Virus record (IMG/VR): IMGVR_UViG_3300028832_000130
Coordinates: 1-64,000 of that record
From: a virus
Taxonomy: Duplodnaviria > Caudoviricetes
DNA length: 64,000 nt
Strand: one strand, 5' to 3'
The notes beneath the pieces are model-generated. The model did no database searches. It had not been told where the DNA came from and saw only the letters and a program-made list of their open reading frames with translations. Below, one piece after another: positions 7,913-62,700 of this stretch (positions within the stretch are counted from its first letter, which is position 1; the number at the start of each line of letters is the position of its first letter). A program made the position numbers and the translations under genes.

Positions 7913-9088
7913 TTATCCGACCTTTGCACCTTTCATTGACAAGACCTTGGCGACCTTTCCGATATTTGCCATTGTCTCTACTATCTTCTTGTCCATGACC
8001 TTTGCATAGGTCTTTTCTGTCTCTCTGATTGTCGAGTGTCCTAGGATATGCTGAACAATATGCATGGGCACGTCGTCCTCATTGATTAGCAGTGTCGCAC
8101 CAGTATGTCGTGCCCAATGGGTCGTTACTGGCTTGTTTATCTTGGCATACTTGACCGCTGCTTTGAGATAAAGATTGTACTTTACGTTGCTAATCACTGG
8201 CAGCTTGTACTTGTACTTTTTCAGAATATCCATTGCCGGTTTCAGCAGGACTACCGTAAAAGGCTGATTGGTCTTTACTCTAGTCGACCTATACACAACC
8301 ATCCCATTCTCTTTGGTACATTTTTTGTAGTCAAAAGCCTCTAGGTCTGAATAACCCATGCATGTGTATGTTTGGAACACAAAGACATCTCTTACTCGTC
8401 CTAGACATTTGTCGTCTATTTGGCATTCCTCAAAGGCATGGAACTCTTCGGGTGTCAGGTGTCGTTGGATCCCGTCCTCTTCTCCTTTTCCTATCTTTAA
8501 TAATGTGTATGGGTTTTTGCTTATAAGGTTCTCATTGAAAGCCTGTGCGACAAATATCTTCAGTATCTTGTGATAGTTCCAACGGCTGCACTCCTTTAGC
8601 CCTCTGTCTTTAAGGCAATCATCCATTTTCTGAATGTTCCTCTCTGTGACATCGGCAAAGTAAACGATACCGTTCCACTCTTCCAGAAAGTCAAGCACGA
8701 CATCGTACCTCTTCTGCGTTCCTCTCCTTAAACATTTCGACCTCTGCGCAGCTTTCTCTTTCATATACTCTAAGAACGTTTGCTTTTGGCTAAGCCTATC
8801 CTTTAGAATATTCGGGATAGCATTTATGTCAACGGTGTCCTCTTCCATCATCTTTGTAATGATGACGTTGCATTTCTTTACTAGGCTCTGCAACTGGCGG
8901 TTAAGTTCCATCATGTCCTCTCTGCCGGTTACAGAACCGTTCTTCCACTCTTTTGGCAGGAGCTTCACACCAGTACTGATGTACTTTCTAACTCTTCCTG
9001 CACTAATTCTCAACTCGACCACTCCAGTCTTAGACTTTGTGGCTTGACCTTTACGGTCATAAATTAATGTTAAAATAGGTACTACCAT
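7913..9088 (-). CDS. int: Tyrosine integrase (Bacteroidetes type: arm-binding, SAM-like and catalytic domains)
   Basis: H-W-A-R (HxxR), LGH and catalytic Tyr (TYAK) are present, with an N-terminal three-strand arm-binding region. Confidence 0.92.
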   Translation of the reverse strand: MVVPILTLIYDRKGQATKSKTGVVELRISAGRVRKYISTGVKLLPKEWKNGSVTGREDMMELNRQLQSLVKKCNVIITKMMEEDTVDINAIPNILKDRLSQKQTFLEYMKEKAAQRSKCLRRGTQKRYDVVLDFLEEWNGIVYFADVTERNIQKMDDCLKDRGLKECSRWNYHKILKIFVAQAFNENLISKNPYTLLKIGKGEEDGIQRHLTPEEFHAFEECQIDDKCLGRVRDVFVFQTYTCMGYSDLEAFDYKKCTKENGMVVYRSTRVKTNQPFTVVLLKPAMDILKKYKYKLPVISNVKYNLYLKAAVKYAKINKPVTTHWARHTGATLLINEDDVPMHIVQHILGHSTIRETEKTYAKVMDKKIVETMANIGKVAKVLSMKGAKVG

Positions 9089-22673: not shown

Positions 22674-22887
22674 ATGCAAAAACCATTATTACTAGACATT
22701 ATTCTTCCTAACGACAAGTTTCTTTGTCAGTTGGCTTATCGAGGTAGGCCAAAGATGATGATAAAAAAGTGATAGAGGCAAGATGCCTGTCTATGATGCA
22801 GAGGACTTGAAAGATTTTGTTCTAAAGAAGCGTCCTACGCTAAAACATGTTGATTTCAGAATCGAACTAACAGACAGAAGACTATGA
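22674..22887 (+). pseudogene. Small gene frameshifted at an A6 run
   Basis: Removing one A from 22763-22768 gives one continuous ORF (MQKPLLLDIILPNDKFLCQLAY...DLKDFVLKKRPTLKHVDFRIEL...) whose stop is ATGA-coupled to 22884. Confidence 0.55.
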
Positions 22888-23120
22888 AAAAAATTATCCT
22901 ATTAGCACTTACAGCCTTGATGATGGTGGGGTGCAATTATACACCAACAGACCACACTACAAGCGATGGAAAACAAGTTGTGCTTATTGATTCATGTGAG
23001 TATATAAAATATTCAAATGGAACTGGAGCACACTATTCTCACAAAGGCAACTGTCGTTTCTGCAAAGAACGCAGACAAAAGGAACAGGAAGAGTTGGTAA
23101 TTAAGTTAAAGAAGAAATAA
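22884..23120 (+). CDS. Lipoprotein
   Basis: MKKIILLALTALMMVG-C lipobox. Confidence 0.75.
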   Translation: MKKIILLALTALMMVGCNYTPTDHTTSDGKQVVLIDSCEYIKYSNGTGAHYSHKGNCRFCKERRQKEQEELVIKLKKK

Positions 23121-35894: not shown

Positions 35895-37622
35895 TTAGAC
35901 TGCACTGGTGTAGCCGGTGTACTCAACCCAAGCATTGGTAGAGTACTGCCATACTGTACCTGCCTTGTAGGTTACGTCGGGATCGTCGCCAGAGCCTTCG
36001 ATGGTGTAGTCCTGTGTCAGAGCAACAATTGTTCCGTCAGCAGGATTGCTTGGAAGCTTGGCAGCAGAAACAACTGCGGTACGTGAAGCGGTGTCAGGCA
36101 GAGAGAAGATGATGTCGCTAGGACCTACGATGATGGAGTTGTAGCCGCGCAATGCGATACAGTCTGCCTCGTAGTGAATCTCGCGTTTTGCATCACGGAT
36201 CTCGCCAGCGCCCTTAGACATGTCGTTGGTGAACTCCTTCTCGCCAATCTTCACATAGCGGGTAGCACCCTCCAGGTCAAGAACTACGCAAACCTCGTCC
36301 ATACCGATAGCGTCGAGACCCTGGTCCCAAGTGAAGTCGGTTGTGCCGAAGGTAGTCTTGAGGCGCTTGAAGTCGATATCCAGCTCCTTAACGTCCTCCA
36401 TCTTGATAATGCGCTTGTTGTCGCCCATGTCGAGGTTCAACAACCACTGCATGAAGGTAGAACCGCAGAAAGCGTAAGAGTGAGAACTCTGTGAGAAGGT
36501 GGTGTGCTGCAGCTTAGAGATGGCAATCAAATCGCCAACGGTGATATGGCCACGGTCAATGCTGAACGAGTTGGTTACCTGCCACAGAATACCCTTAGAA
36601 CCGTAGGCATCCTCAACAGACTGGTCGCCGTTGATTACCTGAATACGGGTCTTGGCACCCATCCAATAGGTACGTTCTGCACGGAGGTTGTAGTTGCGGA
36701 TGGCATTAGCCTTAACGTCGGCAACATGCCAAGGCATCTTCTTCTTAACCTTCTCGAAGTCGTTAGTCCAAACGATGTTCAACAGCTTCTTCTGAACGCT
36801 GAACTCTTCGTAACGAGGCTGATAGTTCTCAGGAGTAATCAGCAACTGGCTCTCGCCTGCGATAGAAGAACCTGCGCAGAGATAAGCGTTTGCAGGAAGA
36901 CCCTTGTTTGAGCTTACTCCGTTACCGGCAAACTCACGAACCTCGTAGGTGTCACCAGCAGTAGCACCGTTCTTCAATTTACCGTTGATAGGAACAACGA
37001 GCACATAGCTAGAAGTCACGTCAACGACAAACAGCTCCAGGCAACCCTCTACGGTAGTACCATCCTCTGCGTAACCGTCAATGAACGGACAGAAAACAGT
37101 AGTGCCCTTGTAGAAAGCTTTCAGCGAACCGTTGAAGTTTGATGTGGTCAGCTTCAAGCTACCATCTTCCTCCTGTGTGATTGCAGAAGTGGTACGGCCA
37201 TCCAAGGTGTCACCACCGATACGGGCGTGCTTTACCGTCCAGTTCTGAAGGTTGACTTTGCGTGCGACACGACGCGCAATGGAGAGAAGCGGAGTACGCC
37301 ACGGCTGAAACTGGGTAATCCCCTGATCCCACTCGTCGTCGATGTTGTCTTCTTTACGCTGCTGGGTAGAACTCAGCTGAGAACCGTTCAAGGTCTCACC
37401 GGCAGCACCATCGCCAGGAATGTGCAGGTCGTTATTGGCTGGGTTGGCAGGCTCGTTGGCAGCAGCTTCGGCGGCTGTTGCGGGCAGAGCGCCCTCGTCA
37501 CCAATTGGGGCATCATTAACTACGGTAGCGTCTGCCATAGCACCGCCACCACTAACTACGGCAAGGACAAACAGCACAAAGCTGAGGACTCGCCAAATGT
37601 TCACGTTCTTAATTTTCTTCAT
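35895..37622 (-). CDS. Major capsid protein (HK97-like, DUF5309/SU10-like) with an N-terminal signal/TM segment
   Basis: Lies after the scaffold-like gene and divergent from the portal; PWRTPLLSIA and YNLRAERTYWMG resemble HK97-fold MCP elements; followed by a terminator. Confidence 0.75.
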   Translation of the reverse strand: MKKIKNVNIWRVLSFVLFVLAVVSGGGAMADATVVNDAPIGDEGALPATAAEAAANEPANPANNDLHIPGDGAAGETLNGSQLSSTQQRKEDNIDDEWDQGITQFQPWRTPLLSIARRVARKVNLQNWTVKHARIGGDTLDGRTTSAITQEEDGSLKLTTSNFNGSLKAFYKGTTVFCPFIDGYAEDGTTVEGCLELFVVDVTSSYVLVVPINGKLKNGATAGDTYEVREFAGNGVSSNKGLPANAYLCAGSSIAGESQLLITPENYQPRYEEFSVQKKLLNIVWTNDFEKVKKKMPWHVADVKANAIRNYNLRAERTYWMGAKTRIQVINGDQSVEDAYGSKGILWQVTNSFSIDRGHITVGDLIAISKLQHTTFSQSSHSYAFCGSTFMQWLLNLDMGDNKRIIKMEDVKELDIDFKRLKTTFGTTDFTWDQGLDAIGMDEVCVVLDLEGATRYVKIGEKEFTNDMSKGAGEIRDAKREIHYEADCIALRGYNSIIVGPSDIIFSLPDTASRTAVVSAAKLPSNPADGTIVALTQDYTIEGSGDDPDVTYKAGTVWQYSTNAWVEYTGYTSAV

Positions 37623-37650
37623 CTTGTTAGGATTTTTATATGGTTTCGAA

Positions 37651-38448
37651 TCAATATCCGTATTTCTTCATTTCGTCGAAGTCCATAGACATGCTCTTTT
37701 TCTTGGGCTTCGGTGTAACGGCCTGGCCTTGTCCCTGACTGAATGAGGGCGGAACCTGTCTCTCGTCAAAGGTCTTTACCTTGTTGGCATGTTTCTCGTT
37801 ACGGGCTCGCATAGCTGCTTCCTCACGGGCATTGGCAATGTCCTGCTCATAGTTCATGGCATGCATGATAGCAGTCCATACGTCCTTGCTGACTTCACCA
37901 CGCCAAGCGGGCAACCACACCTCATCCCAGAAGTATTCAAACATGCGGTTCTTCTGCTCATCACTAAGACCAAACTCTTTCTGAACGGCATCCAACTGCT
38001 CTACACTACGGGCAATGGCTTCATCCTTGGCGGCTTCGGCAGCTTCGCCGGCAGCCTGCCCCTTTTCCCACTCTGAGAAAGCGTCGGTGACCTTCTGCAA
38101 TACATCTGGGTCATCAAGTGCGGCTTTGATATCAATGCCGTTCTTGGCCATCCATACCAACGGGTTCTCTTCCTCATCCTGCAACATGGCACCAATCCAA
38201 CGGTGCTTGTTAAGGATGTTTGTCAACTGCTTACCGCTGTTTCTGAGATTTCTCAGCTCCTCACGGTCTCTGCCCATACGCTCATAGCGGGCTTCCTTGT
38301 CCTCAAAATCTACGTCAGGGTTATCTTCCTTCCACATCGAGGCGTACTTGTCTCGGTTGGGACGTACAGGAACCTCTTGTACCTGCTCGGCCTCCACTGC
38401 TGGCTGGCCGTTCACGTCTACTTCCGTTTTCTTCTTGATTTCTGCCAT
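37651..38448 (-). CDS. Putative scaffolding protein
   Basis: Acidic and helical, immediately upstream of the MCP; start at 38448 given the -7 box at 38472-38479. Confidence 0.65.
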   Translation of the reverse strand: MAEIKKKTEVDVNGQPAVEAEQVQEVPVRPNRDKYASMWKEDNPDVDFEDKEARYERMGRDREELRNLRNSGKQLTNILNKHRWIGAMLQDEEENPLVWMAKNGIDIKAALDDPDVLQKVTDAFSEWEKGQAAGEAAEAAKDEAIARSVEQLDAVQKEFGLSDEQKNRMFEYFWDEVWLPAWRGEVSKDVWTAIMHAMNYEQDIANAREEAAMRARNEKHANKVKTFDERQVPPSFSQGQGQAVTPKPKKKSMSMDFDEMKKYGY

Positions 38449-38471
38449 AAAATTTCGAAATTTTTTCACGG

Positions 38472-38571
38472 CAAATATATAAGATGTATCAAAAGTCTTT
38501 TCCGATTCCGAAATTGCGCCCCTAGCTTATATCGGACACGGAATAAAAAGAGTGGTTTTCGCATATTTTTG
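38472..38571. promoter_or_regulatory. Divergent late promoters with the TCGGAnnCGGAA-N20-TAnnTTTG architecture
   Basis: Motifs at 38500-38511 (minus) and 38532-38543 (plus); -7 boxes at 38472-38479 and 38564-38571. Confidence 0.7.
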
Positions 38572-38593
38572 CGGCATAAAATACAGAAAACGA

Positions 38594-40579
38594 ATGGCTA
38601 AGATAAGAGCTTTATCATCAGTAATGCCTGTAGGGTCTGTGAACGACTCTGTACGCAACCGCAAGCGTAACAGTAGCGTAAGCAACATCCCTTTTCATCG
38701 TCGCCGTAGACAAGACTTAGACCTTATAGCAAGATGCAATCAGGCTTGGAACAACCTAGAAGACGTCCGACTGGTGCGTGATCGTATTCGTCGCTACACC
38801 TACGAAGACCAGTGGGGTGATGTTATTGAGTATCGTCACGGAACGATTACTGAACGCAAATACATTCAGTCGAAGGGTAACGTTCCTTTGCAGAACAACA
38901 TCATGATTTCCATTCTCAACTCTGTAGTGGGCTTGTATGCTAAGCAGAGTGGGGAGCCTAACTGCTTTGCCGTCAAGCATGATGGGCAATGGTTATCCGA
39001 TATGATGACTGCCACCATGCAAACGTCGTGGCAGAAAACATACATGCACGACGCTCTCAAAACGGCTTTTGAGGACTTTATCATTGGCGGTGTAGCTGTC
39101 TCACGCGAGACTTACGAAGAGCGAAACGGACGCTACGACACTTGGACGGACTTCATCAATCCGAACTATGCTTTCTGGATAGGTGGCACAGATGTCCGCA
39201 TGACTGACTTGCAGATGGTCGGTGTGCTGCATGATGTTGCTCCTGGTCAGTTATACCGTAAGTTCTGCAATAGCCAGTATGGTTGGACGGTAGACGAAAT
39301 CAACAAGATATTCGAAATTGACAGCACAGACAACCATCGCTACTTCCGTTCTACAGGGTTACAACAGAACGAGCGCGACCGTCTAGAACAAATCAGCTTT
39401 GATACACCATCGGACAACTCAAAGTGCCGACTTATCGAGGTTTGGACGAAAGAGACCAAGACTCGTTACCAGTGTTACGACCCGCTGGCAGAGAATGGTG
39501 ACGAGGTGGAATACCGTATTGAGCTGAATGACAAATGGCGCATTGACCGGGAGAACCAGCTTCGCATACAGCAGTATTTGCAGGTTGGTATTCCAGAAGA
39601 TGAATGGGCACTGATAGAAACTGAGAAGATAGAGGATGAATACTGGTACTACACCTTTATGGCTCCTGATGGTACGGTTATCGCCGAGGGCGAAAATCCC
39701 TACGAGACGAAAGACCATCCGTTTACCATCCGTCTCTATCCTTACGTCAACTCCGAGGTGCACCCGTTCATGGGCAACATCATCGACCAGCAGCGCTACA
39801 TCAACCGTCTTATCATCATGCACGACATGGCGGCACGCTCAGCAGCTAAGGGTCTGACTATTTTCCCAATAGAGAACATCCCCGATGGCTATACCAAGCA
39901 GGATATAGCAGACGAAATGACTGAGTACGACGGTATTCTGTTCTTTGAGACCAACCGCATGAATCCGAACCTACGCCCGGAGATTATTTCTTCTGGTGCC
40001 GTACAGCTTGGTACACAGGATCTCTTGCAAATGCAGCTTAACCTTTCCCGTGAGATTACCAATGTATCGGGAGCACTACAAGGCAAGACGCCTTCTGCTG
40101 GTACTTCGGCTGCTCGTTACGCACAAGAGACACAGAACGCTACCACATCGCTTGAATCACTCATGCAGGGCTTCACTTCGTTTACCGAGCAGATTGCCCG
40201 CAAGAAGTGTATGTTCATCAAGCAGTTCTATCGCAATGGTCGTATGGTCTACAACTCCATGCGTCAGCTTATCGACTACGACAACCTCTCTTGTCGTGAT
40301 GTGGACTTTGAAATCAGCATCAAGGAAGCAGCAGCAACAGCAGCCTATCAGACCTATGTCAACGATCAGGCCATGCAACTTCTCCAGCTTGGTATCATCG
40401 ACGGAGAAACATACCTCAACATCTGTAACCTGCCATTCAAGGACGATGCTCTTGCAGCAATTGAACAGCGCAAGGCTCAACAGCTTGCCATGCAGCAACA
40501 GATGGAACAGCAGCTTGCCGCCAATCCTGCTAACCAGCAACAGGTCGCTAACGCACAACAAATGCTGCAGGCAGCATAA
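38594..40579 (+). CDS. Portal protein (P22/N4-like)
   Basis: About 660 aa; helical N-terminus, LQNNIMISILNSVVG, IIDQQRYINRL, SGALQG and a Q-rich barrel-like tail. Confidence 0.8.
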   Translation: MAKIRALSSVMPVGSVNDSVRNRKRNSSVSNIPFHRRRRQDLDLIARCNQAWNNLEDVRLVRDRIRRYTYEDQWGDVIEYRHGTITERKYIQSKGNVPLQNNIMISILNSVVGLYAKQSGEPNCFAVKHDGQWLSDMMTATMQTSWQKTYMHDALKTAFEDFIIGGVAVSRETYEERNGRYDTWTDFINPNYAFWIGGTDVRMTDLQMVGVLHDVAPGQLYRKFCNSQYGWTVDEINKIFEIDSTDNHRYFRSTGLQQNERDRLEQISFDTPSDNSKCRLIEVWTKETKTRYQCYDPLAENGDEVEYRIELNDKWRIDRENQLRIQQYLQVGIPEDEWALIETEKIEDEYWYYTFMAPDGTVIAEGENPYETKDHPFTIRLYPYVNSEVHPFMGNIIDQQRYINRLIIMHDMAARSAAKGLTIFPIENIPDGYTKQDIADEMTEYDGILFFETNRMNPNLRPEIISSGAVQLGTQDLLQMQLNLSREITNVSGALQGKTPSAGTSAARYAQETQNATTSLESLMQGFTSFTEQIARKKCMFIKQFYRNGRMVYNSMRQLIDYDNLSCRDVDFEISIKEAAATAAYQTYVNDQAMQLLQLGIIDGETYLNICNLPFKDDALAAIEQRKAQQLAMQQQMEQQLAANPANQQQVANAQQMLQAA

Positions 40580-42748: not shown

Positions 42749-43264
42749 ATGAATATTAGGTACGTTAAGATATTAGTGTTTTTTATGTTGGTGGGGTCGT
42801 ATTTCTTTTTACCGAAGTACGGCTTCACTTCTTTTGACGGTTCTTTTTCTGGATACGACATAGCAAACCACTTCCTATATCCATTCTCGCATGCCAACAT
42901 CTGGCACCTCTTGGCAAACATGCTGTGTCTTTTCATGATTCGTTGCAAGATGCACCTCATAGCAACCTATCTGATTGCCGTGCTGTGCTCATTCCTGCCA
43001 TCATTCTCTATATACGACTGCGTTATGCAATGTGGTTTTGCTGCTTTGTCTGAACCTACATATGGCTTTAGTGGCATCCTCTTCGCTATGGTCGGTATCT
43101 CTTGGGGTAAGATACATCGTCTTAGGGACATGGTTGCCCGAAACAAGTGGTTCCTTATCATTCCCGCTTTCCTACCTCACGTCAACTTCCTCATTCATAT
43201 ATACTGCCTCTTTGCAGGCTACCTATACGGAACATTATGCGCCAAGAAATCCGAGAACTCGTAA
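42749..43264 (+). CDS. Rhomboid-family intramembrane serine protease
   Basis: H48-x4-H53-x3-N57 (SHANIWHLLAN), catalytic G106-F-S108-G109, and catalytic H150 in HIYCLFAG; multiple TM segments. Confidence 0.82.
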   Translation: MNIRYVKILVFFMLVGSYFFLPKYGFTSFDGSFSGYDIANHFLYPFSHANIWHLLANMLCLFMIRCKMHLIATYLIAVLCSFLPSFSIYDCVMQCGFAALSEPTYGFSGILFAMVGISWGKIHRLRDMVARNKWFLIIPAFLPHVNFLIHIYCLFAGYLYGTLCAKKSENS

Positions 43265-45390
43265 ACGAGAACCACAACCGCCGCCAGCTTATCTACGGCC
43301 CATATGACCAACTCACGGGTATAGGCTGCTACGGTTTTGCAGAAGGTCTTCGCAAGCGCGTAGTCATTCCAGACTGCATGATACCAGAAATGTTTGTCAT
43401 GAAGGAAACCTTAGAGACTGGTATCTTCCATGAGGTGTTGCGCTTCGGCACTATTCGCAGGTTTATTGAAGAGGGCTGTCACAGAGACTATGATGCTGAC
43501 TACCATCAGGACGTAGAAGAGGCATTGTTCCAAGCTCGTTGTGCTGACGATCCGGAGTTTGCATTTATCATTACTGACAAGATTGTGGATAAGGTGTCTG
43601 GCAAGATGATACCTTTCACCCTTCGCTATGCCCAGCGAGTACTCTTGAAGGTGTTTGAAGAGCGCAGACGTGCTGGTAAGGCTATCCTTGTTGTATTGTT
43701 GAAGGCTCGTCAGTGGGGTGGTTCTACGCTTACACAGATGTATATGAAGTGGATGCAGGGCTATCGCCACCCGAATGGATGGAACGCCGCTATCGTCACG
43801 CAGGCAGACTCTACCTCTAAGAAGATTAAGGCTATGTACCGCAAATCTTTGGAGGTTCAGCCCGGATGGACGATTGGTATGCCTGGTGCCAAACTGGAAA
43901 TGACACGCTACGAGAACTCTGACTCTGACTTTCAGATATCCGATGGAAAATTCCTTGTCCGTTCTTCCATTCTCTCTATTGCATCGTTCAACTCCTTTGA
44001 GAAGTGTCGTGGTGACAACTACAAGCTGGCACACTTCTCTGAGGTGGCATCGTGGAAGAAGACTCCCGAACACGACCCTGACGAGGTGCGCGCCAATATC
44101 CAAGGTGGTTTCTTAAATCTGCCCGACGAGATGGCGGTCTATGAGTCTACGGGTAAGGGTAACTCTGGCTTCTTCTACGACTTGTGTCAGGACGCTATGG
44201 CCGAAAACTCCACCTCTGCCTACTCCTTTGTGTTCATTCCTTTCTTCCTCATTGAGCAGGACATGAAACCCATGTGGCACAATGGCTTTACAGAGAAGGA
44301 GGAAGAAGAGTTTGCAGAATGGCTGTGGGCTAACCGCAACAAGGACAGTGAGGTGCCTGGATTCCGTGAGTCGGGCAAGTTTTTCTGGAAGATATGGAAG
44401 ATGGGCGCTTGCTTTGAGGCTATCAACTGGTATCGCTATAAGCGTAACGAGCACAAGACGCATGGTTATATGGCTTCTGAGGCTCCCATCGACCCCGTTG
44501 AGGCTTTCCGTAATTCTGGTAACGCAGTCTTTGACCCATACTCCATCGACGACCTCAAAGACGACTGTCAGGCACCAAAGAAGCCGATGTACTATGCCGA
44601 TGTGGTACTTAAACCCTTCGAGAAACGTTCTCGTGCTGTCTATCTGGATGCAAAGGTTGTTGTTCGCGAGGACAACCAAGGCGAGTTAAAGGTTTGGTCT
44701 GCCCCCAACAACCACATCTTCAAGGTCAAGAACCGCTACCTTGTCTCAGTCGATATTGGTGGTGCTTCCGACAAGGCTGACTATACGGTAATGACTGTCA
44801 TTGACCAGATGGGATTGTGTAAGGAGGTCAAAGGCCGTCCCCGTGTGGTAGCCCGTTGGCGAGGCCATGTCCGTCACGATATTCTTGCATGGAAAGCTGC
44901 TGCCTTGGCTCACTACTACGACGATGCTCTGCTGATTATCGAGAGTAACACGGCAGACCGAGAGAAAGATACCAATACCGAGGGCGACCACTTCGGAACC
45001 ATCATCAACGAGATTTCTAAGTTCTACCCCAATCTCTATCAGCGCAACAAGACTCCCGAAAGCGTGCAAGAGGGTATCGAACCCATCTACGGTTTCCAGA
45101 CCAACGTCAAGACCAAGCAGTGGATAATAGACAACCTTATTGCTTGCGTTGACGATAAGCTGTGGGAAGAACCAGACGAGCAGATGTATATGGAGTTGGG
45201 ATGGTATGAGCGCGACCCCGATACAGGCAAGATGGGCAACCAGCCAGGCTCTAACCGTCACGACGACGTGCTCATGTCTACTGCCATTGGTCTCTATGTA
45301 GCCTACAACAACGACATCTACCGTCCTTCATGGCGCACAGAAGCACCCAAGGAGAAGAAACAACGCATTCACACAGAAGCAGAAATATAA
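43237..45390 (+). CDS. terL: Terminase large subunit
   Basis: Walker A LKARQWGGST, Walker B AHFSEVASW, coupling motif YESTGKG, nuclease SVDIGG and C-terminal HDDVLMS. Start at MRQEIREL. Confidence 0.92.
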   Translation: MRQEIRELVNENHNRRQLIYGPYDQLTGIGCYGFAEGLRKRVVIPDCMIPEMFVMKETLETGIFHEVLRFGTIRRFIEEGCHRDYDADYHQDVEEALFQARCADDPEFAFIITDKIVDKVSGKMIPFTLRYAQRVLLKVFEERRRAGKAILVVLLKARQWGGSTLTQMYMKWMQGYRHPNGWNAAIVTQADSTSKKIKAMYRKSLEVQPGWTIGMPGAKLEMTRYENSDSDFQISDGKFLVRSSILSIASFNSFEKCRGDNYKLAHFSEVASWKKTPEHDPDEVRANIQGGFLNLPDEMAVYESTGKGNSGFFYDLCQDAMAENSTSAYSFVFIPFFLIEQDMKPMWHNGFTEKEEEEFAEWLWANRNKDSEVPGFRESGKFFWKIWKMGACFEAINWYRYKRNEHKTHGYMASEAPIDPVEAFRNSGNAVFDPYSIDDLKDDCQAPKKPMYYADVVLKPFEKRSRAVYLDAKVVVREDNQGELKVWSAPNNHIFKVKNRYLVSVDIGGASDKADYTVMTVIDQMGLCKEVKGRPRVVARWRGHVRHDILAWKAAALAHYYDDALLIIESNTADREKDTNTEGDHFGTIINEISKFYPNLYQRNKTPESVQEGIEPIYGFQTNVKTKQWIIDNLIACVDDKLWEEPDEQMYMELGWYERDPDTGKMGNQPGSNRHDDVLMSTAIGLYVAYNNDIYRPSWRTEAPKEKKQRIHTEAEI

Positions 45391-53713: not shown

Positions 53714-56700
53714 TTATTCGATGTCTTGCGTCTTGTCAAGCTCTTCTACGACCATCTGTAGTGTACTGTTGTAGAGTGCTCTTGCGTTCTTTCGCTTTCT
53801 GCCTTCTGCTTGGTTGGCTGCGGTATTCAGTTGCTTCAACGTCTTTTCTGCCTCTCTTACCATTTCCATGCGTACAAAGTCCTTGCCCTTTGCTTCTTCC
53901 ATGTACTTCATGAGGTGTTCAGGATTGCTGCCCATATCGGCTTCGTACCCCTTTATATTGTGATACTTCTCGTTTGCCTCTTCGCGATACTTACGATACT
54001 TAGCCTTGATACGGTACAGGTCTGTGCGCTCGTCGCCCTGCTGCCAGAAGGCGCGGAAGAACTCTATCTTTCGCATGTTAAAGTCAGCCTCATCATCGGT
54101 GAACGCCCATTTATAGGCATCTCCTACGGCAGAGCCAGTGTTCATAAAGAACTTGCCTGGGCCACCAGTATATTGCTCTAACAGATATTGCATGCTGCTT
54201 GGGTTTATCTGTGCCCATCCGCGCTTCACATCGTCACCTCCACTTATATCGTTAAGCCACTTTGACAATGAAATATAAGCGGAGTTGGTGTTGCCAAGAG
54301 TCATCTGGTATTCTGGTGTCCATTCGTCACCTGGGTAGCGGTCTTCCCTAAAGATAGGTTTGCCCGTCCAGCCCAAGTTCTCGCCTACAGCCACCAATGG
54401 AGCTACTGGTGAGCAAATTCTTCCTGCGAATTCTGCTACAGGATTGAACTCGTTGGTAATCTTCGTCTCAAAGTCAACGGGTGAGAATACGTTTAGGAAT
54501 CCTATAACTTCGTCATACAACGTCTTGTCAATGGGTTTTAGCTTCGGGAATAATGTGATACCTGCTATCATGTCACCCATAGAGTAGAACGCTGCCAGCT
54601 CCTGACCCATTGGGATAACAAGGAAGTCGTTCTTTCCACAACCAGGAATCCATCCAGTATAGATACACAAGTTCTTTCTGCGCACCCACTCTGGCAGGTT
54701 TGCATACGGATCGTCGTCGCCATCGCCTCCAGCAAGAGCATAGAGTGCTGCATTGAGTACAGGCATCAGCATGCCCATAGCGAAAGGTGGTGCTGCATAT
54801 CGCGTGAGAAGTCTCCCTGCGTACTTATAGTTGATAGAGCCATCTGGATTCTTCAAGCCTCGGAAGATGTTACAGATAGCCTGCACGGTGGCATTAAAGA
54901 ACATCTTATTTGCCATCAGTATCTGCGAAGCCTCTCCAGCAATCTTGGCTGCTCTAGTAACACTCTTTTTGTCGCTCTTGAAGCTTGCCGTCTTTCTGCC
55001 TGCCCCCTTCTTGTTAAAGTTTACAGTTACTTCCTTAGCGTCGTAAGCAGAGCGGGCCTTGGTGCGGCCTGCATAGTGACGGGATGCGCGGTAGGTAGCA
55101 AAGCGAGCATTGTTCTCAATGGCCTCATTCATTGCCTCTACAGCACCAAGTGTCTTATCGAAGAAACTATTTGTCAACTTCTTTACCTTGCCAGGAGTGC
55201 TTAGCATGCCTTCCATCTCCTTCTGCAGTTCTGCCACCTTCTTCATGTGAACAAACCCTGTTATACCACCATTGTCCATGAAGTCTTTGAAGTCGCGCTC
55301 CATTTCTTTGCTCTCGTCAAGGGTGCCAGCACGATACTTCTTGAACAATGAAATCATGTGTGGCAACTGCTGTCTGTAGTATTTCTGGGCTTCTGACTCA
55401 TAGTCCATGCCTTCACGTGCCGCGAGAATGGCACCGAAGTGAGTCCAGTCACGGAGCATATTTCTTCCGAGGAACGTAATGTTGTATGATGTGCTAACGG
55501 TCTGCTGGAACTGTTTGAGGCTGGCAACCATCTTGTTTACTGTTCCCTTTCCTGACTCATAGCGTAGCTCTCCATTGATAGCTTGCGCCATGCGTGGGTT
55601 GCCCATTACTATCATGGTCTTGCGCTGTCCGTTAATTATCACTTCGACGATGTGCTCTCTCATGCGCTTCTTATCAACCTTGTAGTCGAATTTAGCCTTG
55701 CTATTCAGTCGCTTTGCCTCGCCTCTGGCTTCCAGTTCTGCCATGCGGGTATTAAAGTCGCTGACAGCCTGCTCAACCTCCTGCGGGGTCATGTCTGAAT
55801 CAATGCGTGGGAAATCAACTATAAAGTCTCCCGTTGTCGGGTCAAGCACAGCCCATGTGTCTTGTATCTTTACAAGGTCGTTTTCGTGTGCCTGACACAG
55901 GCGGTAGAAGTGTTGCTTCACCACATTCTGATTACCGTCAGAGATAGCTTTATAGGTCATGGCGAACAAGGTTGAAAGCGGATAGTTGGCTTTGCTCTTA
56001 CGACCCTTGGCATTTCTCAACAGACCTCCCACACTGTTTTTATTGTTGGATTCTGTCATATACTGCCAGTGGTCTTGTGCTGCCTCTCCCTCATTGAATC
56101 CTCGCATAGGAACGTAGAAGTGGAACATGTTCTTTATGCGGTCGTGAACCGACTCAGACAACATGCCGCAGTCTCTGTACTTATCCAATCCAAGGTTTGA
56201 ACACAAGTTTATCTGCTCCCAGAGCCTGTTACGCAACTCATCGCCCATCTTCTCTTCCTGTTTTTGCAGTTTGCTGAGAATGTCGGCCTCGCTATAGTTA
56301 CCTTTCTCGTCACCATACATATCTGTAAAGCCTGAGTAGTCATGCTTCTCTGCATTATAGCGCTTGTTGATGTTGGACTTGATGAAGTCATCCATTTCCT
56401 CTATATACTGAGCAAATGAAATCTCTCCATCCTTCAACTTCTGATAGTTCTCGTTATTCATTGCAGCAAAGTCCTTCTCCATCTCGTCGAGAAGTTCTTT
56501 TTCATCATCTTCCAATTCTTTGCTGCGCTGAGCCTTTAGCCAATCTCTTACATAGAGCACTCGGTTGCGCTCAAAGCCATGCTTGGTGAAAAGATAGCGG
56601 TCAACATCACCCGTCTGCCATCCCATCTTTTCGCATAGCTGTAATACGGTTCCTTCAAGTGGTCTACGGTAGATATTGGTAAACTGCTCCTGCTCTGTGA

Positions 56701-59700
56701 ATGTCTTGCCATAAGAAAGGTTCATGGCCTGATAAGCGTTCTGAGAGTCGGGTATTTCCTCATCGTGGGCAATAGCCTCCTGACCCTTCTTGAATGTTAT
56801 CATGTCGTCCTGACCAGCTTCCGTAACTACGGTTTCTGCACGGTCAATACGCTCATGATATACTTCCTTTGCAGAGTATTCGCCCATTTCACGAACACCC
56901 TCTACCTTTTCTTTGCGCTCTTTCTTCCAGCGTTTTGCTGAAAGCTCAATGGCTTTGAGTGGGTCTACTACTTCTTGTAGTTCGGGTTCCTCTTCAGAGC
57001 GTACGACGTTATCTCCCCGTTCTCGTCCCTGTTGATTACTTCTACGAACCTGGGTTGCTGGTGCCTGTCGATTTTCGCCAAGTCGTCCAAGCTGATTGTT
57101 CCTTTCTTCTTTTCTTCCATTTTGTATATAATTGGTTAGTTCTCCTGCAAAGTTACGGATTTCTTGTCTATTATCCAAGAACTCGTTCATAAATTTTTCA
57201 GTACCGATATTTGCTACCACCACATTACCGATAAGGAAAGAGCAAGCTTCTTCCAGTCTTTCTTCCTTTTCGTATGCATTTCTGATGTGCATATAGATGT
57301 CTGGGCGATTGGCTTTCAGCCAGTCATAGCAGGCTTGCCCGTATCTGTTACGAGCATCTGCCGGCATGCGCTGCCAATAGCCATGTACTTGTTCGTGCCA
57401 CCACGCTTCTTCTGCTTCTCTGATGTCACGAAGTTTCTCCCCAAACACTACAACAACATCACCCTTGGGGAAATATCCGGATGCGGTATCAGGCTCGTTG
57501 TAAAGTTCCTCAATCTCGTTATAGACATCATCACCTACCTGTCCCTTCAAAGCCTCCAAGTCAGCGCGGCTGTTAACGACATAAGTAGGCACGCCACCAT
57601 TAACTCCAAAACGACTTGAAATACTGTCTACGAAGTCTTTTATATCGTCTAATAGAGAAATCTGACGCTCCTGTCTCCAACTATCTGCTGCCTGTTCAAT
57701 GGCTTCCAACGGATTGTTGGTAGTAATCATGCGCTTGGGAGATTCCTCTTCCTTATGCTCTTCGGCAACTGTTACGCCTAGCTCGTCGAGACGTTTCATG
57801 ACGGCATCGAGATTGCTGCGCTTGAACTCGGCCTTCATCTTACTGCTGCCTTCAAACTGACCGTCCATCAGAGAAAGGAGGGTTTCGTCGTTGTAGTACT
57901 TAGCTCCCTTCTTAGCAGACTTAGGCACAGTCAACTCCAAGGTGTCATAGCTGTGGGTGTTCCAGTTCCAATCATTGGTAACACGGATTGACACGTCACC
58001 ATCTGCACTCTCTACCTTGTCGCGGTTGTACTTCAATTCGTCCTTCTTGGCAGAGATTGGCGTCTTACTGGTAAGTCCCTTCGGTTCGAAGTTGTCTGGC
58101 ATCAAGATACCCTGACGCACTTCGCCTGTATCGGTAGTAAACGAAATCAGCTTACCGCCTACACCCTGCTCACGGGTAGATACAAGAGCTTTCAGCAGAT
58201 TACCGGTAATGATATAACCATCCTTGCGGGCTGCAGTAGATGTCAGCTTATCCCAATTATCCGTGTTCTGTTCCAACACTTTCAGCGTATTGGCAATATT
58301 CTGTCCGAACCAACCGCCTCTCGCCTGTGCGGTAAGAGAATTGATGGTGGGGAATATCTGTTCCTTCTCGCCCTTCTGCTGCTTTACCTTGCCATTGATA
58401 GGGATAGTAATCTTACGACGGCCATCAAGCGTAGCAAACGATATGGTGCTGGCATTGGGTGACATGTTATCACTAATCTTAATGTCAATCAGCTTACCAA
58501 ATCCAGGCTCAAAGGTCATACTTCCGAGGTCGTAGATGTTGCTAGGCAAAGCATAGACACCATCCGTAGTGAAGGTTTCAAGAGCATCGACAAACACCTG
58601 TTTCTGTGCTTCGATAGCGGCAAGTGCATCGTCAAGCTTCTTAATCTCTTCCTTGTACATGTTCTCATACTGTATCTGACCGTTGCGTTCTATCTCTTCG
58701 TCGGTCATTTCGTTCTTCTCCTGAGCTTTCTTGGCACCCTTAACATAACGTTCCTGTTCGGCTGCTGCCTTCTTCTTTGCTCTCTCGGTAATGGTCTCTG
58801 TGGTTTCGGCTTTCTTCTTCTCCGCCCACTCGTCAACCTTAGCAAGCGTTTCTTGCTTGTATTCATCCCATGTCTTACCACCAAGAAGACGCTCCTGCGA
58901 AGCTTTCACCTCACTGGCTTTCATCGGCTTGCGTAGAACATCCATGTTGACTTTCTCTACGTAGGTATTGTCAGCAAATGGGTTGTTACTATCCGGATCA
59001 ATACCTTGCTCCCAAACTTGCTTGCTCAAAGTCTTGGCTTTCAACGGCATTTCGGTAATCTCCAAGTCGTTTTCGCCCATTTCGTTCAGTCGGTCTATCT
59101 CAGTCTGATAGAGGTCGCTGATTTCTTTAAGCATCTTCTCCTGGTCTGCAACCTTCAAGAGCGCCATGCGACCAAGTACTTTGCTTGCGGTTTTTCCTGC
59201 TTCACCTTCCTTTGATGCAGAAGCAACCAACTCTTCTGACGGCTTTATCTGCCAGTCATCTCCCCATTTCAAAGGATTTAGCAGCTTTTCTGCAAGGTCT
59301 ACGTGTTCTGCGAGATACTGAGTAACGATGTCGTCACCATACTTATTAATGATGTCTTGTACCTGCATTTCGTTGAACTTCGACTTCTGAGAAGATGTAG
59401 TGTTGGCATCCAAAGAGCGAAGCTTTGCTTTCAACATCATCAATAGGCGTTGCTCTGATGGGATAGTAGAAACAATATAGGTATATCTACTATGTTGCTT
59501 CTGTCCTGTTCGATCTGTGCGGCCACGCATCTGCACTTCGTCGTTAATGTCACTCTGTGGCTGAACGACAATCATGTGACGCTGGTCTGTGTTTAGGAAC
59601 TTAATGCCTGCATGAAGGTCAATGCCCGTGCCTGCGCTCTTGTTCATGATAACAGCGTCTACAATGCCACTGTTGAAGTCGGAAGCGTTCTTCTTGTTGT

Positions 59701-62700
59701 CGGTGTCAGTGCGGTTGACGCGCTTAACAGTACCGTCTTCGTTATATATAAACTCCTTTTTTCGTCCTGTGAGTTCGGCTATGCTGTAGCCTGCCTTGCG
59801 TATATAATTCTTAATCACATCAATCGGCGACAGACTCAGACCTGTAGACGAGTTAGCTATAGCTTCCTCGATTTCATGATATCTACGCTGACCTTCTTCA
59901 GAAAGCCTACTTACAGGTATAGAGGTATAAGTGTCATTGTTGTTGGCATCTGTTTTCTTGATTTTCAGAGTGCTTTCCAAACCCTCGTGCAAACTCGTGG
60001 AAAGGTCAGGCATTGTCATGTCTTCGTCGGAATTCGCCGTTGCTCTGTCTGCTGCACCTTCGTTTGTGTTTTCTACACAGATAACGGGCTTCTCTCCGTT
60101 CTTTAGACACTCTACTGCGAACTTAGCACCTTCTTCTGCCTTTAAAGAGAGCAACACTTTTTTGACAATCTGATGGGTCTGGCTGGCAAATGGAGTGTTG
60201 TTAATACCCATATCTCGTGTACCAGGAGTGTGGTTTACTTCTCCCTGATCTTCTGCAGCATCATCGTTCATCTTGTCAATGATGGGGTCAACATAGGTAC
60301 GCTGAAACTGAATGATGTCATTAAAGAGGCCAATAATCTTGTCGTATTGTTCGTAATGCTTCTTTATGACATCTTCATCCTCAATGCCCTTCCAGTCTAC
60401 CGTTACACCAGTCATGTTGCGCTCACGACGTATCATCTGACCTGCTTCTGTCAGAGCCTTAGACATTATCTCTTGGAACGTAGCACCACCACGTTTAACG
60501 GCATCTATCAACTCGCTAACGGCAACACCTGCCTTACTGATTGCTGTGCGCAGCGAATAAAGAGGCATGTTGTCAGGACGCTTAGCAAATGTAGCACTTA
60601 TATATGTGATGCCTCCTGCTTTAGTAGAAACATATTGCAAGTAGTTTCCTCTTGCACTTTCTCCACCAGCCAAATGGCTTTCGTCCATTAAGACAATACT
60701 ATTTCCTGCAAGATTCTCAATTGCATCACGCTTTGCTTGTCCGTTGACATCTGCTTTTGTGGCGGTCTTGTTCTTTCCGTAACTTCGAGCTTTCTTATTG
60801 CCGTTCTCATACTCCATAGTACCGTTTCCTACTTGACTATAGGTGGTAATCATGAAGTCGTACTCAGGCGGCAATTTGCCATTCTTGTTTATATATTCAA
60901 GAACTCGCTTCTGCTCTTTGTCGCTTGGCAGGTCAAAAAGTACTTCGTCTTTGCCGTCTTTTCTTTCTGTAATACGGGCCTTTATCTTGTCAGAGGCAAG
61001 GATAAACGGACGCAAACCATCGCTGTGGATATCCTTTATATCACGGTAAACGCTGGAGAAAAGCTCTGGCTTTGCTGTGAAATATACAGGGGCCTTGCCA
61101 TTCTTGACAGCCCAACGGATTAATGCTGCACCCTGTCTGCCTTTACCTATACCGGTTTGGTCGCCGATGATAAAGGCATCCCCCTTCTTCATTTGGTGGA
61201 TAGCAAGTGCTACAGAATCAATCTGCTCTGCTGCTAGTGCTTGATACAGCTCTTCCTTGCTACTATAACCTAGTTCTTCAACAAGGAACTTATCTACGTC
61301 CCCTATAGCTTCAAGCGCTTTCTTTACAACGTCAGCCTGCTCTGCTGGCATCTGAGATTGTAAGTCAAACGGATTTGTACTTTGTTTGCGATAAGGAACT
61401 TTTTCTGCTCCCAATTCGCGCTTTTGCTCGGGTTGTTTTACTGATAGTCCGGCTCCGCTATCCACAGCGTCTCCAGGAAGTCGCTGAGAGTTGCTTCCTC
61501 CGACAGCCACTTCTCCTGTTCCGTTTTCGCTGGATACAGTTTGGCTCCCTCTTGATTGCTCAGATTGATTCCCGCGTCCGTGAAGAAGTACAGGTCGTGT
61601 GCCCATTCCTCCATTTGTTTCTGGCTGGGCATTTCCTCCCCCTCCTTCGGCTTTGGCGCTTGCATCGCTCCGCTGTACATCGACGACAGGCTCAGTTGAT
61701 AGTTGATGTTCTCCTGAGCTTCTTCCGTCCCGCACATTTCGTACTCCCTTTTCATTAGAAGAACTAACATGTCCATTATCAGATAGTCCTCCATTCTGTC
61801 CGCTTTCTGCGGTGTGAACACTAGAGGATGTATCTCCGTCGTGTTCCTTGTTACGTAATATGTCATCGTTTACTCGTTTAAATAATTCATCGTATGTCTT
61901 AACCTGCTCGGCACGTGCCTTGTCACGTACAGGAGCATATACTGTCGGGTCGTACTTAGGCTTGCGTCCGTTAATGAGAATCATTCTGACGGGATAGCCA
62001 GTGCCCTGCTTAGTGTAAAGCGCCTTACCGTCCATGTTGATAACGTCGACTACGTTGTAGGCTTGGTACAGATAATTTAGGAATTGTCTGTCTTTTCCCT
62101 GTACGGCACCATTGCGCTTATACTCTGTGTTACCGCCAATGATGATAGCTGCACGGCCATCGTCCTTCATTGCATCGAGGGCATTGAGTGCCATTTGCTG
62201 TTCAAGTGACGAAATCTCATATACTCCCCATTCCTTTGGTAATACGCTGCCGAATGGTGGATTAGTGACGATAACATCGTACTTCTTCTTGCCAAACGAC
62301 TTTGTACCGTCTTGACTGGTAACCTCACCAAATCCCTGCTTCTGTAAGTTGGAGAGTCGCATTTCATCAATGTCGTTGACGTGCATTATCTCCTTTGGCA
62401 GATTGATAGTCAGCATACCGTTGCCGGCTGATGGTTCCAAACCACTCTTAGCCTTTTTCTGCGGGTCTACGAACTTGCCCATCAAGAACGCCATCGGTGC
62501 AGGAGTAGAGTACTGCTGCTTGTTGATGCGGTCATTGTCTCTTGCGCTTAACGTAGGCTGCCATTCATAGAGGTGCTTGATATGTTCAAACTTCTGTTCA
62601 TCATTCAAAGCTTCTGTATTGGCAATGTCTCTTGCGACGTTGACAATCTCTGCCTCTACCAACTCCTGCAGGTCAGTCATGCTCATATCATCAAGACCGT

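Follow-up and report, generated by a model that had tools for sequence, protein, structure and literature searches.

Why the shell protein of a tailed phage should begin like a signal peptide is the question raised by the major capsid protein (MCP) gene of the DNA studied here, a 64-kb stretch (64,000 nt, hereafter the window) that is the first part of one 74.8-kb virus genome (IMG/VR record IMGVR_UViG_3300028832_000130, Caudoviricetes, a gut Bacteroidales phage; CheckV 100% complete). The current view is that the capsids of tailed phages assemble from soluble subunits in the cytoplasm, and that a soluble protease inside the procapsid is responsible wherever maturation is proteolytic. On balance, and from sequence comparison, we lean to the view that this MCP is a membrane-tethered precursor whose leader is removed by a rhomboid protease of the phage itself; in the related genomes compared, the leader and the rhomboid gene are shown to co-occur and to be lost together.

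The capsid protein and its N-terminal leader

Codons 1-30 of the MCP gene (37533-37622) encode a basic n-region, a hydrophobic core, an S-GGG stretch and A-M-A, and the translation agrees residue for residue with the N-terminus (n-region, core, GGG, AMA) given by an earlier reading of this DNA made from its letters alone (the sequence-only reading). The leader has the three parts that define a signal peptide, namely a positive n-region, a hydrophobic h-region and a polar c-region with small residues at -3/-1. That reading had described the leader from a single protein; homologs conserve it. The architecture, including a [ST]-G-G ... [M/L]-A motif, is common to nearly all of the 120 closest homologs, and an exhaustive search, reaching relatives at about 24% identity, found the basic n-region and hydrophobic core in 85 of 104 full-length 50%-cluster representatives, which confirms at the level of sequence a pattern far beyond chance. 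In distant clades the GG is substituted by G-A-D-S or similar.

The properties of the leader were quantified with our own rule-based scripts in 86 leaders, i.e. the 85 leader-bearing representatives and this MCP. The uncharged span (V12-A30) is 19 residues long here, the family median being 20. Its N-terminal flank has a net charge above zero in 98% of the leaders, the 30 residues past the span are net negative in 100%, and the N-flank is more positive than the C-flank in every case (86/86; median +3 vs -4). In all 86 an acidic residue, D or E, is the first charged one to follow the span, the distal span contains G or P in 82, and a site obeying the -3/-1 rule of signal peptidase I is found in all 86. 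Taken as a topology signal, these features predict that the segment is oriented N-in, C-out, as a signal peptide or a type II signal anchor would be.

The sequence-only reading had assigned an HK97 fold to the protein behind this leader, and structure comparison upholds the assignment. An AlphaFold2 (AF2) model built with 30 homologs has a mean predicted local distance difference test score (pLDDT) of 71.6; it is confident for residues ~110-575, shows a helix at residues 6-23 and is disordered at residues 24-93. A Foldseek search with this model returned 280 PDB matches at E≤0.001, those listed being capsids of phages or gene transfer agents and encapsulins; the top match is phage VP1 (9in6; E 3e-16), and further matches include phicrAss001, P1, T4, SU10, HK97 and N4. 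P0001 is accordingly confirmed, at the level of the predicted structure, as an HK97-fold major capsid protein. Sequence searches with it gave zero matches in Pfam, no match among PDB sequences (phmmer) and only a weak match, of unknown function, in PHROG; PF17236 (SU10_MCP) appears in the precomputed annotation of MCP homologs at ~50% and ~25% identity. A tblastn search against 50,697 cultured-phage records gave no match, so virion proteomics cannot be borrowed from these. Between leader and fold lies the acidic linker that had also been read from the sequence, now delimited as residues 31-95 of low pLDDT, with the short conserved motifs IGDEG, DPANP, PGDG and GTQ.SS.Q in the alignment. The linker is kept in leaderless relatives and therefore belongs to the MCP rather than to the leader module.

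Several observations bear on whether the leader is made at all. The frame is open from the leader-start ATG in the window and in 78 related loci, with a stop codon often directly before M1. The sequence upstream of M1 is A-rich (AAAAATCCTAACAAG) and that upstream of the internal M29 is GC-rich (GGTGGCGGTGCT), a difference already pointed out in the sequence-only reading and plainly seen in the sequence; AT- or A-rich sequence precedes M1 in all related loci. The ratio of nonsynonymous to synonymous substitution (dN/dS; pooled Nei-Gojobori over 1,020 sequence pairs) falls from the n-region through the h-region, c-region and linker (0.67, 0.20, 0.17 and 0.12) to 0.07 in the capsid core, and the low values of the h- and c-regions indicate that purifying selection acts on the hydrophobic and distal parts at the protein level. 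The codon equivalent to M29 is ATG in 68 of 79 loci and CTC or CTT in the other 11, and an internal start at M29 is therefore not the general rule. The GGN-GGN codons before M29 were considered as a Shine-Dalgarno-like site and rejected: they are mostly GGT or GGC, with GGAGG in one subgroup only, and 11 of the 79 loci lack the start codon that such a site would serve.

By these comparisons the leader is translated, and the claim that the long form is probably made has gained in strength. That M29 is the true start and the upstream 28 codons a mis-annotated 5' region is, in our estimate, very improbable. Such a start would suit the wide conservation of M29, the leaderless relatives that begin at the aligned 'MA' and the internal Met sometimes chosen by gene callers (P0160, P0117 and P0030), but it conflicts with purifying selection on the upstream codons, with a frame that is always open and has in-frame indels, and with the CTC/CTT codons, the base composition around the two candidate starts and the Gly codons just described. 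As a matter of annotation, public gene calls cut the MCPs P0160, P0117, P0030 and P0163 at an internal Met, which makes them seem leaderless, and protein-database counts of leaderless family members are overestimates for this reason.

Co-occurrence of the leader with a phage rhomboid gene

The head module of the phage also encodes P0271, which matches the rhomboid family PF01694 with 38.1 bits (gathering cutoff 22.6; E 2e-9). Residues H48, H53, N57, G106, S108, G116, H150 and G157 are invariant in 23 phage homologs, and the catalytic Ser108 (in GxSG) and His150 are intact, as are the oxyanion residues H53 and N57 of the HxxxN motif. The AF2 model reaches a pLDDT of 89.9 and matches GlpG in every one of its top 23 PDB hits (TM-scores 0.51-0.60, probability 1.00). 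By sequence and by model, P0271 is a rhomboid protease with a six-helix GlpG-like fold and intact catalytic residues, belonging to a set of minimal phage enzymes of 152-181 aa. The loop charges in the 23 sequences fit the positive-inside rule for an N-in/C-in six-helix protein, which would place the active site in the outer leaflet of the cytoplasmic membrane, near the periplasmic face, and this predicted depth is where the S-GGG-A-M-A of an N-in leader would sit. A complex prediction for the rhomboid with MCP residues 1-50 scored 0.02 against a mark of 0.32; its controls were not run and it gives no verdict.

The distribution of this gene follows that of the leader. Among close leader-bearing relatives, all 14 near-complete genomes have a rhomboid match, 13 of them above the Pfam cutoff. 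In the more distant leader-bearing clades 14 of 16 records match Pfam at E≤0.01, and the remaining two, both complete genomes, are positive with a phage-specific profile (E 7e-34 and 4e-21), which brings the total to 30 of 30 leader-bearing whole-genome records. No rhomboid was found in 22 leaderless genomes, 18 of them at least 90% complete, either with Pfam or with the phage profile at E≤1. A first phmmer and HMM search had given a rhomboid in 10 of 81 cases, an artefact of 10-kb flanks and of divergence that the whole-record searches corrected. The leader-bearing clade furthest from the window (~25% MCP identity) still has a rhomboid gene, annotated as such by Pfam, with the portal gene on one side and the scaffold and MCP genes on the other, and in distant clades the rhomboid gene is located ~1.2-2 kb upstream of the MCP gene and divergently transcribed.

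Lack of the leader is genuine in the leaderless clade, where the first ATG is preceded, at a distance of 1-17 codons, by an in-frame stop in 80 of 80 loci and most proteins start with 'MAE'. Within leader-bearing clades there are two more such contrasts. P0143 is likewise truly leaderless; a soluble 134-aa gene occupies the syntenic slot, and its 10.8-kb contig contains no rhomboid. In P0037, P0038, P0039 and P0045, the nearest relatives of the window outside its own subgroup, a short non-hydrophobic vestige (MRKRFF...) remains, and the DNA retrieved around the MCP gene, which reaches up to 10 kb on each side, yielded no rhomboid; for such close leaderless relatives, known from Logan/ENA contigs, absence covers the ±10-kb flanks or the fetched part of the contig. 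P0160, in turn, regains a full leader when its ORF is extended, and a partial rhomboid gene stands at the edge of its contig. On an IQ-TREE tree of 60 MCPs from which the first 100 residues had been removed, the leader state changes three times independently, and the rhomboid state changes in all three.

A proposed membrane-tethered precursor and its alternatives

It is proposed that the MCP is translated from M1 with a 30-residue membrane-inserting leader, which would form one half of a two-gene module with the rhomboid. The new MCP would be held at the membrane by this leader until the rhomboid cleaves it within the GGG-AMA stretch or immediately behind that, and the cut would free a leaderless MCP that begins approximately where leaderless relatives start ('MA...'). 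The 'MA' start of these relatives aligns with the leader end, which fits a mature N-terminus near there in both kinds of phage. We infer membrane insertion, cleavage, the protease responsible, the cut site and the return of the capsid domain to the cytoplasm. That capsid subunits throughout a large group of Bacteroidales tailed phages are integral-membrane precursors, freed by a virus-encoded rhomboid that cuts within or beside the span, is a wider claim which we consider plausible but just short of probable. Of the two interpretations put forward by the sequence-only reading, a precursor released by proteolysis has thus acquired strong comparative support through co-occurrence with the rhomboid gene, which that reading of the leader had left unmentioned, and the production of two isoforms is disfavoured by the 11 of 79 loci with CTC or CTT at the M29 position.

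Searches for a conventional prohead protease help to place this module. This complete genome has no match to an S78, ClpP (S14) or S49 protease, and 23 complete relatives, leader-bearing and leaderless, have no S78 or ClpP match; a search for S77 (PF03420) had no working positive control and is uninformative. The lineage therefore resembles those with P22-type assembly, which is scaffold-dependent and protease-free. Because naturally leaderless relatives assemble capsids with neither leader nor rhomboid, the module is an add-on layer and not core assembly machinery; perhaps it serves the sequestration or timing of assembly-competent subunits.

A number of points weigh against a rhomboid-released precursor. 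Under the predicted N-in orientation the capsid domain would end up in the periplasm, a compartment in which DNA cannot be packaged; this concern, raised from the positive-inside rule in the sequence-only reading, is reinforced by the N-in prediction obtained for every one of the 86 leaders. The substrates of rhomboids are canonically N-out (type I/III), with the cut at the N-terminal end of the span (Strisovsky 2009, PMC2941825). The N-out/C-in orientation of such substrates is at odds with the charges of all 86 leaders; their helix-destabilising residues near the cut do have counterparts, S-GGG-A in this MCP and G or P in 82 of the 86. The small residues S24, G25-27, A28 and A30 are candidates for P1, and on inspection none has a clear hydrophobic P4 together with P2', although the specificity of the phage enzyme may differ. 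A-M-A equally fits host signal peptidase I. Three co-changes do not suffice for significance (sign test p 0.25), the evidence for two of them comes from partial contigs, and other genes differ between the compared clades, so that the rhomboid could have another substrate. No relative was found among the 50,697 cultured-phage records. The orientation could be reconciled, speculatively, with cytoplasmic assembly if the leader and early linker inserted as a hairpin loop with the rest of the MCP in the cytoplasm, and cleavage at the outer face then let the linker slide back.

The same observations can be read in other ways. The leader could be an ordinary Sec-type signal peptide, cut at A-M-A by host signal peptidase I, with the rhomboid either acting like a signal-peptide peptidase that rids the membrane of a very large load of leader remnants, or assisting processing. 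The n/h/c architecture with its universal -3/-1 site and the predicted N-in orientation, which is that of signal peptides, agree with this, and rhomboid co-occurrence is explained equally well; E. coli degrades N-in signal peptides with the intramembrane protease RseP and with SppA. We nevertheless regard this explanation as rather unlikely, since the median uncharged span of 20 residues exceeds a typical signal-peptide h-region, the distal motif, at a dN/dS of 0.17, is far more conserved than ordinary signal peptides need, and this explanation gives no reason for a capsid protein to enter the Sec pathway. A further possibility is partial or complete export of the long form, which the rhomboid or signal peptidase would shed into the periplasm or into outer-membrane vesicles for a non-structural role, such as that of a decoy or exclusion factor, while a cytoplasmic fraction supplies the capsids. 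The topology is most simply read in this way, because all 86 leaders are predicted N-in and their acidic C-flanks favour translocation. Ectodomain shedding is also the classical rhomboid activity (PMC2941825). The ATG kept at the M29 position in 68 of 79 loci and the equivalent 'MA' start of leaderless relatives also speak for it, but the 11 loci with CTC or CTT have no other in-frame Met nearby, so that a general short isoform does not exist, and no second MCP-like gene was noticed among the annotated ORFs, although the whole genome was not screened for one. We know of no function for an exported HK97-fold protein, and export appears improbable to us.

The hydrophobic helix might, alternatively, never enter a membrane and instead act as an internal assembly propeptide in the procapsid, similar to a delta domain, that is removed or retained, its link with the rhomboid being indirect. 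It is common for HK97-fold MCPs to have their N-termini directed towards the procapsid interior and to lose them at maturation, as in HK97 and T4, and the helix predicted at residues 6-23 would suit such a role. The charge asymmetry and membrane-span-like segment are universal, however, the sole co-varying protease is membrane-embedded, no soluble prohead protease was found in the lineage by the searches above, and a separate gene occupies the scaffold position; we judge a propeptide of this kind to be improbable, to much the same degree as export. The precursor released by the phage rhomboid remains the explanation that we prefer.

For such a precursor the closest formal analogue is the GlyGly-CTERM/rhombosortase system, which combines a dedicated rhomboid with a tripartite signal (Gly/Ser-rich motif, hydrophobic span and basic cluster; Gadwal et al. 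2018, PMC6219818) and whose pairing was first recognised by gene co-occurrence (Haft & Varghese 2011, PMC3237569). The phage leader would be its N-terminal mirror image with chain polarity reversed; the predicted geometry is shared, the basic end being cytoplasmic and the Gly-rich end at the periplasmic face, but the phage leader has as its passenger a capsid protein whose work has to be done in the cytoplasm. The only NCBIfam match of the phage rhomboid is rhombosortase TIGR03902, at 18.8 bits far below the cutoff of 84, and the enzyme is therefore not a member of that family. In fold and catalytic residues it is similar to GlpG and AarA (MEROPS S54). AarA removes a short N-terminal extension from TatA (Strisovsky 2009, PMC2941825). 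The phage protease would likewise trim a short N-terminal piece, whose span contains helix-destabilising small residues, and would thereby activate its substrate; unlike the substrates of GlpG and AarA, the phage leader is predicted to be N-in with its small residues at the C-terminal end of the span, and the enzyme is virus-encoded.

Among viral systems, the major coat protein of M13, pVIII procoat, has a leader that is cut by host leader peptidase. The MCP described here also begins with an N-terminal membrane-targeting leader, as predicted, followed by an acidic region, but the coat of M13, 50 residues long, is itself a membrane protein whose assembly takes place at and through the membrane, whereas here a 545-residue HK97-fold protein would follow the leader and DNA is packaged in the cytoplasm. 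In HK97 (delta domain and gp4) and T4 (gp23 and gp21) soluble propeptides and proteases act inside the procapsid, and the capsid and scaffold leaders of 80alpha are reportedly cut by host Prp. As in these phages, the MCP would lose an N-terminal extension to a dedicated protease, encoded in the head module or recruited to it; the candidate here differs in being intramembrane and not soluble. Signal peptidase and signal peptide peptidase detach the capsid or core proteins of Flaviviridae from a membrane anchor, so that a membrane-anchored capsid precursor released by intramembrane proteolysis, as proposed here, would be common to both; in Flaviviridae, though, the anchor is C-terminal and leaves the domain cytosolic, a host aspartyl enzyme does the cutting, and neither fold nor realm is related. 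Full-text literature searches found nothing on a signal or transmembrane leader of a tailed-phage MCP, nor on a phage rhomboid tied to capsid genes.

Genomic setting, hosts and implications

The MCP gene lies in a head module beside the portal gene and a gene in the position of a scaffold, an order that is kept in relatives (Table 1). We infer from position and composition that the 272-aa gene upstream of the MCP gene encodes the scaffold. The rhomboid gene overlaps at its end with a 747-aa ORF (43147-45390, +), for which searches of Pfam, PHROG, NCBIfam and PDB sequences gave no match.

Table 1. Features of the capsid locus and the rhomboid gene, in window coordinates
Feature	Position	Strand	Details
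Major capsid protein (MCP) gene, P0001	35895..37622	-	575 aa; ORF and translation, HK97 fold by AF2/Foldseek
Leader n-region, residues 1-11 (MKKIKNVNIWR)	37590..37622	-	Net positive; dN/dS 0.67, charge conserved
Leader hydrophobic core, residues 12-24 (VLSFVLFVLAVVS)	37551..37589	-	Kyte-Doolittle 11-mer 3.16; dN/dS 0.20
Leader distal part, residues 25-30 (GGGAMA)	37533..37550	-	Glycines and small-x-small; predicted cleavage region; dN/dS 0.17
Acidic disordered N-terminal linker, residues 31-95	37338..37532	-	Alignment; pLDDT <50; dN/dS 0.12
A-rich intergenic leader upstream of M1	37623..37650	-	28 nt; Bacteroidota-type start context, without Shine-Dalgarno sequence
Scaffold-position gene	37651..38469	-	272 aa; phrog_22323, function unknown; 44 K+R, 53 D+E; no hydrophobic leader
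P22-like portal protein	38552..40579	+	phrog_156 E 9e-50; PF16510 E 2e-20; divergent from scaffold and MCP genes
Rhomboid-family intramembrane serine protease, P0271	42749..43264	+	171 aa; PF01694; head module; proposed leader partner

Prophage relatives are located in genomes of Prevotella, Leyella, Segatella and Tannerellaceae, which identifies the hosts as diderm Bacteroidales; one of these prophages resides in the cultured isolate Leyella stercorea An906. One further MCP relative (L363) comes from a metagenome-assembled genome labelled Bacilli, all others being from Bacteroidales, and this is probably a binning error; its upstream frame as read is not leader-like and may be out of register. 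A tyrosine integrase (7913-9088, -) with Arm-DNA-bind_5 (Bacteroidota-type) and SAM_5 domains indicates that the phage is temperate, in keeping with its prophage relatives in Prevotellaceae.

Elsewhere in the genome, a giant ORF of more than 3,400 aa (53714-63955, -, continuing past the window end) carries methyltransferase, Strawberry-notch-type helicase and LPD38 domains and is a 'polyvalent protein' of the kind found in phages and conjugative elements; versions of it in relatives have 3,230 to 5,779 aa and adjoin portal-side genes. The contig of the leaderless P0038 contains a diversity-generating retroelement (L158:17878-20748), composed of an Lcl_C-type target, bAvd and a reverse transcriptase, downstream of the head and neck genes. 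Two small ORFs (2203-2499, +, and 22884-23120, +) have N-termini of signal-peptide or lipoprotein type, one with a lipobox-like MVGC, and beyond the window (genome 71109-72018, -) a four-span 162-aa protein and a 138-aa lipoprotein-like ORF (LLSSC) may constitute a lysis cassette; the GG...MA type of leader is absent from all of these.

Taken together, the sequence comparisons point to a putative, previously undescribed membrane-linked step in the building of tailed-phage capsids. If the proposal is true, there would be a membrane step or checkpoint in the capsid assembly of abundant gut and rumen Bacteroidales phages, and a viral rhomboid would be assigned its first natural substrate, one with reversed (N-in) polarity; rhomboid biology would gain a rare clear candidate for a physiological substrate, identified by co-evolution. 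The hypothesis is directly testable because of the relative that is a prophage in cultured L. stercorea An906. For genome annotation the leader also matters: such MCPs are sometimes cut short by gene callers at an internal Met, and filters for signal peptides may mistake them for non-structural proteins and drop them.

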